Source: Candidatus Bathyarchaeia archaeon
Lineage (GTDB): Archaea > Thermoproteota > Bathyarchaeia > Bathyarchaeales > Bathycorpusculaceae
Length of the DNA: 28,461 nt
Reading direction: 5' to 3'
Assembly (NCBI GenBank): GCA_038883855.1
Contig: JAVZLH010000014.1
Location: forward strand, 1-28,461
A program made the position numbers and the translations under genes. Positions 24,741 to 28,255 of the stretch are shown here, in pieces (within the stretch, counting starts at the first letter, position 1; the number at the start of each line of letters is the position of its first letter). The notes beneath the pieces were generated by a model that was not told where the DNA came from, ran no database searches, and saw only the letters and a program-made list of their open reading frames with translations.

Positions 24741-24917
24741 ATGAAAGCTAGAAGCGCACTAGCTCTTTGTTTGATGCTGTTTTTTTCTTGTGGCAAGGTT
24801 GTCGGCGCCTCCGAAGAGCCTTTCACGGAGCAGTTTCTCGGCAGTCCTCTGCTTGTTTTAACAGCCATAATAATCATTGACATAATGGCCCTAATTTACC
24901 GTAAAATAAGGAGATGA
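24741..24917 (+). CDS. Small (58 aa) membrane protein with signal-like N-terminus and C-terminal TM plus basic tail, not in ORF track
   Basis: MKARSALALCLMLFFSCGKVVGASEEPFTEQFLGSPLLVLTAIIIIDIMALIYRKIRR*. Confidence 0.6.
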   Translation: MKARSALALCLMLFFSCGKVVGASEEPFTEQFLGSPLLVLTAIIIIDIMALIYRKIRR

Positions 24918-24921
24918 AATT

Positions 24922-25518
24922 TTATTCGCTTTGAGTTTCGCCCTTTAAAAGCAAGTCTGCAAGCGCTTTCTGGTCAACTTCCGCGCGGGTTCTCCAATCC
25001 AAGTATAATTGCTCGTTTTCGTCTTGGGTAAGGTATCCATAACGAATGTAGCGGTCAATGTTTAAGCCCACCTTCCACCCGGGCAGCTTATCTCGCAAAA
25101 GTTCTTCCACTTCTTTCCGCGGTGCTTTCCCCTTCTTTGATATTATGTATGCAATTGTTATGGCTAAGCCTGCCAAGTCGTCTATTCGCCACCCAATCAT
25201 CTTCGCTTCTTTGGGCGTCAAGTCTCCTCTTAGGGTTAAGTAGAATCTGGCTTTGTCCAACTGCTCCAAAGTTGGCTTCTCAACTGGTTTTTCCTCTTCA
25301 AAAACAGTCTTAACTTGCAAGTCAAGCGGTTTAAGGTAATTATCCAGTATGCTTAAAACTTTTGGGTAGTCTGCGCCCAAGGCTTTGCGAAGTTCCCAGC
25401 CTTTTACTCCTGGTTTTTTGTGTCTTCGGTAGAAGAGCATATGGGTTGCCCTTTTCATTTTGCTGGCATAGTAGGCTTTTCTTTTGCTCACTTTGACTTG
25501 CTTTTCCACTTTTGCCAC
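24922..25518 (-). CDS. KITE (tandem winged-helix) protein, Nse1/Nse3(MAGE)/ScpB-like
   Basis: Two WH-sized halves; GLAITIAYIISKKGK...EELL, IDRYIRYGYL, LDWRTRAE resemble MAGE/Nse3 WH-B; third gene of the SMC operon. Confidence 0.7.
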   Translation of the reverse strand: MAKVEKQVKVSKRKAYYASKMKRATHMLFYRRHKKPGVKGWELRKALGADYPKVLSILDNYLKPLDLQVKTVFEEEKPVEKPTLEQLDKARFYLTLRGDLTPKEAKMIGWRIDDLAGLAITIAYIISKKGKAPRKEVEELLRDKLPGWKVGLNIDRYIRYGYLTQDENEQLYLDWRTRAEVDQKALADLLLKGETQSE

Positions 25519-26309
25519 TCTTCCACGGTCACAGCTATCGGTATGGAAACCAGCTGTTTTTTCGTGGTTTTTGCTGGTTTTTCCACGGGTTTGATGAATA
25601 TTTCCTCTTCTAACGGGCGGATTTCCAATGTTGCATAACCGTATGTGATTAGAAAGCTTGTCATAAAGGCCCTGTGAACTGTTTCCTCGTAGGTTTCTGC
25701 GCCTACAAAGTCCCAGTATCTAATTTTTCCTTCCACACCTTTCTCCGCTACTTTATTTTTTAGCTCTTGCCAAAAGCTTTCCAATTCCTCTGAAAATGCT
25801 TTGTCACGTAGAATTCTTTCCCTAATCAGTTCTTCCCGCGTTGCTGAACCAGCAGCAACTTCGGGTTGAGCAAACTCTTTCCACCTCTCTTTAAGTGGCA
25901 GTAGGTTTTCCCAGTATTTTATGGATTCAATTAGGCTGTGGAGAGATATTTGCTCAAGCTCAACTATGGGGTGCCAAGCCTTAAGAAAAACTCTGACCAT
26001 TTCATCTTTGTCCATGCGCGTTATCTTCTCTTCTAAAAGGAATGGGTCTGTGTAGAGGGATGTTGAACGGTGTTTAACCCATTCGCTTTGAAGCTTTATA
26101 ACAGAAGCTAGGCGATGTATGGCTTCAGCGTCTAGGCATAGGTCTTCTGGCAGTTCCCATTCTGGAAAATACTCTCTTACCACAGCGATAATTTGGTCAA
26201 CATCCACAAGGAAAGGGTCTAAGGAACGCTCCTCAATAGAACGGCACATTTCAATTATTCTCTGAAGCTTTTCTCTGCCGATCTTCACCTTTTCCCTTTT
26301 TGAAGACAT
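25488..26309 (-). CDS. Kleisin (ScpA/Nse4-like)
   Basis: N-terminal LDPFLVDV...DL....A....A..IKLQSE (ScpA-type); C-terminal WH IRYWDFV....EETV..AF..SFLI..G (Nse4-type). Confidence 0.78.
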   Translation of the reverse strand: MSSKREKVKIGREKLQRIIEMCRSIEERSLDPFLVDVDQIIAVVREYFPEWELPEDLCLDAEAIHRLASVIKLQSEWVKHRSTSLYTDPFLLEEKITRMDKDEMVRVFLKAWHPIVELEQISLHSLIESIKYWENLLPLKERWKEFAQPEVAAGSATREELIRERILRDKAFSEELESFWQELKNKVAEKGVEGKIRYWDFVGAETYEETVHRAFMTSFLITYGYATLEIRPLEEEIFIKPVEKPAKTTKKQLVSIPIAVTVEEWQKWKSKSK

Positions 26310-28255
26310 TAGGCAACCTCTCTGATCACGGATTTTCCTTCAACGTTTTGAACAGTGATTATGTTGACTTCTTCTTTGGCGAAGGTTATTTGGCTTGGCG
26401 TAATCACAATGTATTGGGCATTTGCATCCTTAACTGTTGAAATTAACATTTGCGCAATTACCTCGCGGTTTCTGGGGTCCATATGGATGTCGTATTCGTC
26501 AACTGCACGGAAGGGGGAGCGGACATGCTGCTGCAAAGCCAGCAAGAAGCTCATTGTGGCTGTTGTTCTTTCGCCGCCGCTCTGCGTATAAGCGTCCAAG
26601 GGCACTGGTTTTCCACCTTTAAAGCCGACGAGGATTTCCAGTCCCGCAGCCTCTATATCATGCCCATTAACAAGCCTAACTTCGCCTTCGGCTTGGGCGT
26701 GGGCCAAAATTTTCTGGTATTCCAAGTTCACACGGTCTAGAAGGCTTTGAATCACTGTTCGCCAAGCTTGCATCCTCGTTTTAACTTCTTCCAAAGCTTT
26801 TTCTCGGTTTTCAGCAACCAACTGAGCTTTTTCCTTAAGCTCCAAGTAAAGTTTTGAGTAGGATTCATACATGCGTTCGATGTCTTCTGAAACATCTGAA
26901 AGAGCAGCCAAGTGGCCGTCTGTAACGCGGATTTCGTCGAGGATTTCGCCGACGCTTTTTATTACAGCTATTCTCGGTCCAGTCTCCTCAGCCTTTTTAA
27001 TGGAGCTGTTCAAATAGGCTTTTGCGTCTTTAAGTTCCTTCTCGAGGTTTTCAATTTCTGCTGTCACGTTTTCCCTACGGTATTGAAGAAGCGCCAGTTT
27101 AATTCGGCTGTCTAAAACTTGATTGCCAAAATCTTCAATTTCCTTCTCCAGCCTCTCCATTTTTGCTTGGTTTTCGCTCATATTTTCGCTCAGTTTTTGA
27201 AGGTGCGCCTTGGAGTTTTTCGCCATTTCCTCCAAGTTTTCTTTTACGAGAAGTTTGAGCTTTTCTGACGTGTTTTCTTTTAGCAGTTGGGTTAGCTGGA
27301 GATGCGGATTTTCGAGAACCGCCGTTTCCTTTAGCAACTGCTCGCAAAATGTTAATGCTGCTTCGCTTCTGCCTTTTTCAAATTCAAGCTTTAGACGCTC
27401 TTCTAAAAGCCTCTTCCATTCGCCTTTAAGCTTTTCAAGCTGCCCATTAAGAGTTTCCATCCGTTCTTTTTCTATTTTTGTTTCTTCCTCGATTTGGCTT
27501 AGATTTTTAAGCATTTTTTCCCGTTTGGCTTCCAATTCCTTAACTGTGCTTTCTTTTCGGTTTACCTCAGCCCAAGCAAGCTCCCTCTCCAAAAATCTTC
27601 TCTTTGTCTGCAGCTGCTTTTTCTCTTGAAGCCTCTCGTACTGTTCCCGCCAGTAGTTAAGCGTCTGCTCCGCTGACTCCAAAAGTTTGCTTATGGATTC
27701 TTCTTGGCTTAGGATTCGCGTCAATTTTTTCTGGGCTTGCAAAACGTTTTCGCGGTAGGCTTCAAGCCCAACGGCGGCCTCAACCATCCTCAGTTTTTCC
27801 GTTGGTGAAAGCACGGTGAACTGTTCAACCATGTTCTGATGCATTATTATGAGCATGTTGTCCGGGTCAACGCCCAATTTAGACAAAAGCCTCTCCACAT
27901 CCTTCTTCGTAACAGCCCTATTCTCCAACTCAAACCAGTACTGTCCATCCCTACGCAAAACGCGCGTCAAAAAAATCTGGTCCTTATTAAACTTTGGAAC
28001 TGGGCGCCTTCCACCTTTCTTTATGTTATCTAAAACAAGTGTGACGCGCGCTTGGTCTCTTCCCCAACGAATCAAATCGCTCAATTTCCTAGAACGTTCA
28101 GTGTACGATTGTCCCAAGGCTACAGAAATAGCCAGCAAAAGCGAAGACTTTCCAGAGCCGTTTGGACCGCAAATGACGTTTACGCCATGTTTAAACGGTA
28201 CCCTAGCGTATTCGTAGCTCATGAAGTTTTCAAGGATCACCTCACTGATTAGCAT
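26309..28255 (-). CDS. SMC-family ATPase related to Smc5/6 (short arms, no recognisable hinge)
   Basis: LENFMSY, Walker A GPNGSGKS, Q-loop MHQN, long coiled coils, signature QSGGE, Walker B/D-loop SPFRAVDEYDIHMD, ITP. Confidence 0.9.
   Translation of the reverse strand: MLISEVILENFMSYEYARVPFKHGVNVICGPNGSGKSSLLLAISVALGQSYTERSRKLSDLIRWGRDQARVTLVLDNIKKGGRRPVPKFNKDQIFLTRVLRRDGQYWFELENRAVTKKDVERLLSKLGVDPDNMLIIMHQNMVEQFTVLSPTEKLRMVEAAVGLEAYRENVLQAQKKLTRILSQEESISKLLESAEQTLNYWREQYERLQEKKQLQTKRRFLERELAWAEVNRKESTVKELEAKREKMLKNLSQIEEETKIEKERMETLNGQLEKLKGEWKRLLEERLKLEFEKGRSEAALTFCEQLLKETAVLENPHLQLTQLLKENTSEKLKLLVKENLEEMAKNSKAHLQKLSENMSENQAKMERLEKEIEDFGNQVLDSRIKLALLQYRRENVTAEIENLEKELKDAKAYLNSSIKKAEETGPRIAVIKSVGEILDEIRVTDGHLAALSDVSEDIERMYESYSKLYLELKEKAQLVAENREKALEEVKTRMQAWRTVIQSLLDRVNLEYQKILAHAQAEGEVRLVNGHDIEAAGLEILVGFKGGKPVPLDAYTQSGGERTTATMSFLLALQQHVRSPFRAVDEYDIHMDPRNREVIAQMLISTVKDANAQYIVITPSQITFAKEEVNIITVQNVEGKSVIREVA

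Follow-up and report, generated by a model that had tools for sequence, protein, structure and literature searches.

An SMC5/6-related operon of the Bathyarchaeia with an SMC protein predicted to lack a hinge

A contig of 28,461 nucleotides from a Candidatus Bathyarchaeia archaeon genome (GCA_038883855.1, contig JAVZLH010000014.1; its whole length is referred to as the window) carries three overlapping genes for an SMC ATPase, a kleisin and a kite protein. This trio is a real member of a published family of archaeal SMC5/6-related complexes, and is neither a new system nor a faithful ancestor of eukaryotic Smc5/6. Its unusual part, which was missed by an earlier note made from the letters of this DNA, is the SMC protein, which is predicted to have no hinge. 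The SMC gene (26309..28255, 648 residues) was identified from the open reading frame list, Pfam, an AlphaFold model and a tree of head domains, the kleisin gene (25488..26309, 273 residues) from Pfam, profile searches and Atlas, and the kite gene (24922..25518, 198 residues, GTG start) from a structure model and Foldseek; all three, and the features within them given below, are on the minus strand. As the earlier note had described, the SMC and kleisin genes meet in a TAATG overlap at 26309 and the kleisin and kite genes share 31 nucleotides (25488-25518). In relatives this second overlap varies, mostly from 0 to 44 nucleotides, and hence the true start of the kite gene is uncertain.

Operons of this type have been reported before. 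Van Hooff et al. (10.1101/2024.01.07.573240) describe distinct SMC-kleisin-kite operons in TACK and Asgard archaea, one related to condensin and cohesin and one to SMC5/6, the latter combining an Nse4-like kleisin with an Nse1/3-like kite in proposed homodimers that await experiment. Yoshinaga and Inagaki (PMC8665677) count 80 SMC5/6-related archaeal SMCs, 66 of them from TACK. The earlier note, which named neither study, had claimed a degree of novelty that these two papers take away, the first for the operon type and the second for the SMC clade.

On sequence evidence, the head of the trio SMC is of the Smc5/6 type. Its C-terminal part reads TQSGGERTTATMSFLLALQ..SPFRAVDEYDIHMDPRNRE, the letters quoted in the earlier note being present in the translation, and the protein mixes Smc5 and Smc6 motifs in one gene. 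The Walker A motif GPNGSGKS (residues 30-37; 28145..28168), Q140, SGGE and the Walker B DE (586-587) are invariant or nearly so in an alignment of 85 rows, and so the ATPase looks active. The signature of the ATP-binding cassette (ABC; here QSGGE), the Walker B motif and the D-loop lie at 26465..26587 and are of Smc5/6-type wording. At the H-loop position (26396..26401) the protein has TP (T619-P620, the proline being invariant in the 85 rows), like the eukaryotic Smc5/6 rows; canonical Smc rows have TH, TL, SH or SL. The earlier note had used as a foil the rule that archaeal condensin Smc reads (L/M)SGGEK and DE.DA.LD. The canonical Smc of the same genome agrees with the second element (DEIDAHLD) but not with the first, where it reads ASGGER.

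The best matches of the trio SMC among solved structures, found by sequence, are to yeast Smc5; a DNA- and ATP-bound Smc5/6 core is among its structure matches. The head-domain tree comprises 69 rows, 6 of 75 having been dropped by a motif filter (one Smc6-type, an ASRP member and four Rad50-like), and is rooted on two long Rad50-like branches; it holds no Smc1-4, MukB, JetC, Sph or arcadin rows, and 4 of its 14 eukaryotic rows are named by a source, the others being labelled by motif. The trio SMC falls in a short archaeal clade (34 rows, support 98/85), which unites at 100/99 with a branch containing eukaryotic Smc5 and Smc6, while canonical Smc forms a separate branch (100/97) and the two Rad50-like rows also stand apart. 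The affinity for Smc5/6 put forward in the earlier note is upheld by this tree together with the Smc5 match and the TP H-loop, and the head groups with neither Rad50 nor canonical Smc. Against family models, it scores 191.9 bits with TIGR02169 (canonical Smc; cut-off 729.4) and at most 75.8 bits with Rad50 models (cut-offs of 700 or more). The kinship with archaea-specific SMC-like families that was also suggested does not hold, with 70.7 bits against the NCBIfam ASRP model (cut-off 300) and 57.4 bits against arcadin-4 (cut-off 860). Coalescin ClsN and Sph are relatives of the ASRP family.

Gene 2 is, by profile comparison, a complete Nse4-type kleisin with a ScpA-like N-terminal helical domain followed by an Nse4-type C-terminal winged helix. 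Of 39 aligned members, 35 match the Nse4_C model of Pfam at E <= 1, the best at 1.1e-6. At E 4.7e-5 a more diverse kleisin profile finds both yeast Nse4 and human EID3; the summed repeats of a designed repeat protein give it a similar score. The same profile matches N- and C-terminal ScpA structures weakly (E about 0.5). Profile-profile comparison with ScpA (ten archaeal sequences; crossed controls under 1%) gives 92.5% and E 4.9e-7 over 189 columns with both domains aligned, and Atlas places the protein near the eukaryotic Nse4 cluster (0.91). Gene 3 is modelled as a kite closest to Nse1/Nse3 (MAGE). Single-sequence searches of kleisin and kite against solved structures gave no match, nor did Pfam give any for the kite, and its profile match to ScpB is weak (4.8%). 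The kite model (predicted local distance difference test score, pLDDT, 71) has two winged-helix domains in tandem. Five Foldseek matches reach E <= 0.001, namely Nse1 (7dg2_A), MAGE-G1 (5hvq_D), Nse1 (5hvq_C), JetB in fourth place and a second Nse1-Nse3-Nse4 chain, and ScpB follows them. A wide structural search (VIA) puts 7dg2_A, from the Nse1-Nse3-Nse4 entry, first (Z 9.3, root-mean-square deviation 12.3, 147 aligned), with single winged-helix proteins less than 1 Z from it, which amounts to a tie. Both partners are thus of the kinds that the earlier note had assigned, kleisin and KITE.

The three genes stay together across the Bathyarchaeia. Eighty loci were fetched, and the 71 with at least 1450 bases downstream of the SMC gene were counted, 9 being too short. 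Both partners lie within 5 kilobases downstream in 70 of the 71, an arrangement that is not due to chance; they are contiguous in 69, with the kite 3.7 kilobases away in L065 and no kite in L045. More distant genomes of the class and phylum have all three genes in 17 of 20 chosen regions (contiguous in 15). At L045, L044, L065, L116, L117 and L122 the operon is interrupted or lacks an adjacent partner. By profile search the SMC gene is present throughout whole families of the phylum and absent from others, the short SMC being found in 71 of genomes G000-G120 (E <= 1e-90), and the spread of the trio is vertical and single-copy.

The genome of the window (1.11 Mb, 85% complete, the scope of all statements on this genome) also encodes, elsewhere, a hinge-bearing Smc of 1184 residues, then ScpA and ScpB; the trio SMC and this canonical Smc are the only SMC genes found in it. 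The reading frame of the canonical ScpA (L081:11274-11840) extends beyond the first listed ATG on the upstream side, where it still matches relatives, so its predicted true start lies further upstream, perhaps at an unusual start codon.

The trio SMC is predicted to lack a hinge, a case that rests on the structure model and on length. Pfam finds SMC_N in the protein and not SMC_hinge. In the AlphaFold model (pLDDT 87.5) the chain runs from the head through helix 165-313, a loop, helix 330-425, a joint and helices up to 519 back to the head, giving a domain plan of split ABC head, neck, joint and short antiparallel coiled coil. The arm apex, at the usual site of the hinge, is a loop of about 16 residues (314-329; 27269..27316) with a pLDDT under 50, and is the least conserved and most gapped part of the alignment. 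The 648-residue sequence contains no CxxC (zinc hook). A purpose-built profile made from 20 hinges scores above 1 bit in none of 52 short full-length relatives (548-685 residues), and detects P0179 (43 bits), P0251 (17 bits) and 8 of 21 eukaryotic Smc5/6 rows (E < 0.01). Head-proximal lengths are fixed in all 85 rows (head to W228, 193-199 residues; joint to Walker B, 156-162 residues) but the distal arm ranges in length between 100 and 233 residues, at a conservation of 0.2-0.4, and hence the head-proximal part is the conserved one. Counted in residues, the arms are estimated at about 22-28 nm, or half length. By the hinge criterion for SMC complexes in the strict sense (condensin, cohesin, Smc5/6, Smc-ScpAB), the trio SMC falls outside the group. 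The accessible text of van Hooff et al. (10.1101/2024.01.07.573240) mentions the hinge three times, in general descriptions only, and calls for characterisation of the family; the word does not occur in the last part of the supplement of Yoshinaga and Inagaki (PMC8665677). Literature searches for a hinge-less archaeal Smc5/6 relative found no such statement, most subscription papers being outside their coverage.

Hinge-bearing relatives branch around the short clade: canonical Smc, proteins of 823-841 residues from Freyarchaeia and Jordarchaeia, and P0179, whose head is 40% identical to that of the trio SMC and which branches at the base of the short clade and is described as its sister. Eukaryotic Smc5/6 keep the hinge as well. 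Since these relatives surround the clade, the simplest reading is that the hinge-less state is a secondary loss, in a derived and shortened form, rather than ancestral. A second hinge-less pair, P0203 and P0209 (628-633 residues), branches apart from the main short clade, and so there may have been more than one loss of the hinge. P0270 (781 residues), which falls in the canonical Smc clade, has no hinge match by Pfam or by the purpose-built profile and is perhaps a separate loss in canonical Smc.

One Bathyarchaeia family, f76, holds in 7 of its 10 genomes an extra paralogue of about 1020-1050 residues with long arms and a central CxxC (L147:4843-8019; L169:1656-4857; P0137, P0140, P0146), and no other family has it among 401 genomes (E <= 1e-120). 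It nests inside the short clade in the head tree (100/99), stands without a kleisin and kite, and occurs alongside a normal trio and canonical Smc in G439, G476 and G482. It has the appearance of an Smc5/6-type head that has recently acquired a zinc hook. The idea that these hook-bearing long forms replace the short SMC was rejected, as they are an extra copy beside it, and derivation of their arms from Rad50 found no support (best E 0.24 against two Rad50-like proteins of the same family).

On balance, and with somewhat better than even confidence, the trio is best read as a derived, hinge-less form of the archaeal SMC5/6-related complex, serving replication or repair as an ATP-gated DNA clamp of short range. 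Two short SMC proteins, one kleisin and probably two kites would assemble as a 2:1:2 complex, in which the kleisin would link one head, at its neck, to the other, at its cap. The dimer would be kept together by the kleisin and by the heads sandwiching ATP, and not by a hinge. Eukaryotic Smc5/6 clamps DNA between its engaged heads and the kleisin-kite module upon ATP binding. In the trio, ATP binding would likewise clamp DNA in this place and hydrolysis would release it. Arms of about this length, open at the tip, would suit the clamping or tethering of forks, recombination intermediates or supercoiled DNA, and the role would be genome maintenance and not that of a closed ring extruding long loops. 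A co-inherited protein of 228 residues, described below, is a candidate fourth partner. In favour of the clamp are the grouping of the head with Smc5/6, the absence of a hinge, the core genes that adjoin the trio (nusA in 47 of 100 loci) and an Lhr-type repair helicase in 9 of the 20 distant regions (L112, L114-L116, L118-L120, L126 and L127). Bulk condensation is covered in this genome, since a separate Smc-ScpA-ScpB set is present.

Several points weigh against the clamp. The literature searched holds no functional data on any member of the family. None of the 80 Bathyarchaeia loci has the Lhr-type helicase, confidence in the kite model is intermediate, and the hinge profile, which finds 8 of the 21 eukaryotic rows, has a limited reach and is weak evidence alone. 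The tip of the hairpin could also dimerise without sequence conservation, as coiled coils can. Finally, three near-complete genomes, namely G008 and G016 (97% complete, on one contig) and G057 (92%, on two contigs), yielded no SMC-kleisin set other than the hinge-less trio, and neither a long Smc nor ScpB was found in them; this fits a condensin-like job too. G057 additionally has a Rad50-sized protein of 882 residues.

These three genomes also speak for a rival reading, in which the trio is a miniature loop extruder or condensin substitute, its arm tips pairing by a non-hinge coiled-coil contact so that a small ring translocates and organises the chromosome. We consider this unlikely, though it is the leading rival. 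All studied kite-bearing SMC complexes, Smc5/6 included, are reported to extrude loops (PMC11840125), and 36 of the 71 genomes with a short SMC have no Pfam hinge match. That number, however, cannot be taken as a count of genomes without canonical Smc, being an overcount: family f23 has a Smc of 1128 residues whose hinge Pfam missed. The short gene is retained beside a full Smc-ScpAB in at least 35 of the 71, and the tip, where the contact would have to form, is the least conserved and most length-variable part of the protein and is modelled as a disordered loop.

It is improbable that the trio senses or silences plasmid or virus DNA in the manner of Lamassu, of Wadjet or of human Smc5/6 in its antiviral role, with its effector gene at another site. 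The size and short arms of the trio SMC resemble those of LmuB (about 650 residues; PMC10586767), PADLOC gives it an LmuB match (E 6.3e-26), and JetB is the fourth Foldseek match of the kite. Against this, the Walker B glutamate is intact and the hook absent, in contrast to a typical LmuB as described in the accessible text (PMC10586767), the partners give no PADLOC match to the LmuA effector or LmuC, and the neighbours of 100 loci include no conserved nuclease or effector. JetD_C was not found in this genome and no JetD is among the conserved neighbours, as the earlier note had it. Its preference for housekeeping over defence is in keeping with the pattern: whole families carry the trio, while defence systems spread sporadically.

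Equally doubtful is a four-part complex, in which a 228-residue protein would take the place of the hinge, bridging the arm tips or binding DNA there. The gene for this protein lies near the SMC gene, usually divergent from it, in 41 of the 61 Bathyarchaeia loci that have enough sequence upstream, and in 10 of the 20 distant regions. Among 121 genomes, 66 have both genes, 5 the SMC gene only, 4 the 228-residue gene only and 46 neither, though kinship among the genomes means that these counts are not independent. Pfam, NCBIfam, PADLOC and solved-structure searches gave the protein no family. Its nearest named Atlas clusters are CENP-L (0.83) and RdgC (0.78), which are reported to share a fold (PMC5095916), but Atlas scores below 0.9 serve only as leads; in 5 genomes, CENP-L and RdgC models matched nothing, not even the 228-residue gene, and a search of the accessible literature for RdgC or CENP-L in archaea found no statement of it. 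The gene is moreover transcribed separately from the trio and often unlinked, and so variable a tip would offer a conserved partner a poor place to dock. In this genome it lies on another contig (G000:C11:31631-32314, minus strand; a relative copy is L057:4088-4783), whose end joins the end of the window in a 91% identical relative. There a single contig covers both C11 and C14, the contig of the window, with a gap of about 25 bases, and the two are probably adjacent, joined at window end 28461 and the C11 end.

A broader picture would combine these elements into a hinge-free SMC-kleisin-kite machine that is the only SMC complex in some lineages, has an RdgC/CENP-L-like fourth subunit, and belongs to a family in which three kinds of arm tip (hinge, bare loop and zinc-hook-like CxxC) have been exchanged for one another; as a whole it is speculative and has a small chance of being right. 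Least probable by far is the framing of the earlier note, a faithful relic of a pre-duplication, homodimeric Smc5/6 ancestor: it would fit a single SMC gene with mixed motifs in a clade sister to the branch holding eukaryotic Smc5/6, but that architecture is largely refuted, as the hinge that the trio has lost is kept in canonical Smc, the Freyarchaeia relatives, P0179 and eukaryotic Smc5/6, that is, in forms that branch outside the short clade as well as at its base, and as the eukaryotic proteins branch with two long archaeal-type proteins, P0201 and P0251 (95/88), and not inside the short clade.

With regard to the surroundings of the trio, the window has Bathyarchaeia as its closest relatives, and its rpoB, L30e-family and nusA genes are convergent with the operon. 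Between nusA and the 3′ end of the kite gene lies a hydrophobic open reading frame of 58 residues (24741-24917, plus strand) with no family match. A scan for bacterial-type promoters, which is ill-suited to archaea, stayed at chance level. Of expression data there are only contigs with small shares, one run of which is recorded as RNA, and these say nothing on transcription. In a distant region, a Rad50-like ATPase of 786 residues without CxxC (L121:8980-11340) is encoded 840 bases from the trio.

No prokaryotic family is closer to Smc5/6, a complex whose core role remains under debate, and a set of three small proteins (648, 273 and 198 residues) is easy to express. Because it appears to lack a hinge, the trio separates ATP-driven DNA clamping at the heads from the hinge-closed ring, which are coupled in other SMC complexes. 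If it did translocate or extrude loops, the hinge would be dispensable for an SMC motor and several loop-extrusion models would be ruled out. The hinge-bearing relatives are a better model of the eukaryotic ancestor than the trio.

Compared with known systems, the trio shares with Lamassu LmuB an SMC-like ATPase of about 650 residues with short arms; however, LmuB is Rad50-like, often hooked and paired with an effector (PMC10586767), whereas the trio has an Smc5/6-type head, a kleisin and a kite, and no effector was seen. Unlike Rad50/SbcC, its SMC has neither a CxxC hook nor a Rad50-type head, and unlike Wadjet (JetABCD) it has no JetD among its conserved neighbours. ASRP and arcadin-4 are likewise short archaeal SMC-like ATPases, but the ASRP member fetched has a central CxxC and the trio SMC none. 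With Smc-ScpAB it shares the SMC-kleisin-kite gene order, the homodimer logic and a kleisin that aligns with ScpA over both domains; Smc-ScpAB nevertheless belongs to a separate clade and has a hinge-bearing Smc of about 1180 residues, which is encoded elsewhere in this genome. Eukaryotic Smc5/6 (Smc5, Smc6, Nse4, Nse1 and Nse3, plus Nse2/5/6) has in common with it head motifs such as the TP H-loop, the kleisin C-terminal domain and the kite fold. The eukaryotic SMC proteins are about 1050-1130 residues long against about 650 without a hinge, form a Smc5-Smc6 heterodimer where the trio has one SMC gene and no such pair was found in the genome, and are joined by two kites, Nse1 with a RING, in place of one 198-residue kite whose two domains are both modelled as winged helices with no RING. 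The nearest system is the archaeal SMC5/6-related complex as published (10.1101/2024.01.07.573240; PMC8665677), whose accessible accounts present SMC proteins in general as hinge-dimerised and leave the half-length hinge-less form, the 228-residue gene and the hook paralogue unmentioned. With it the trio shares a head sister to Smc5/6, an Nse4-like kleisin and an Nse1/3-like kite in one operon, a homodimer as the proposed form, and coexistence with Smc-ScpAB.

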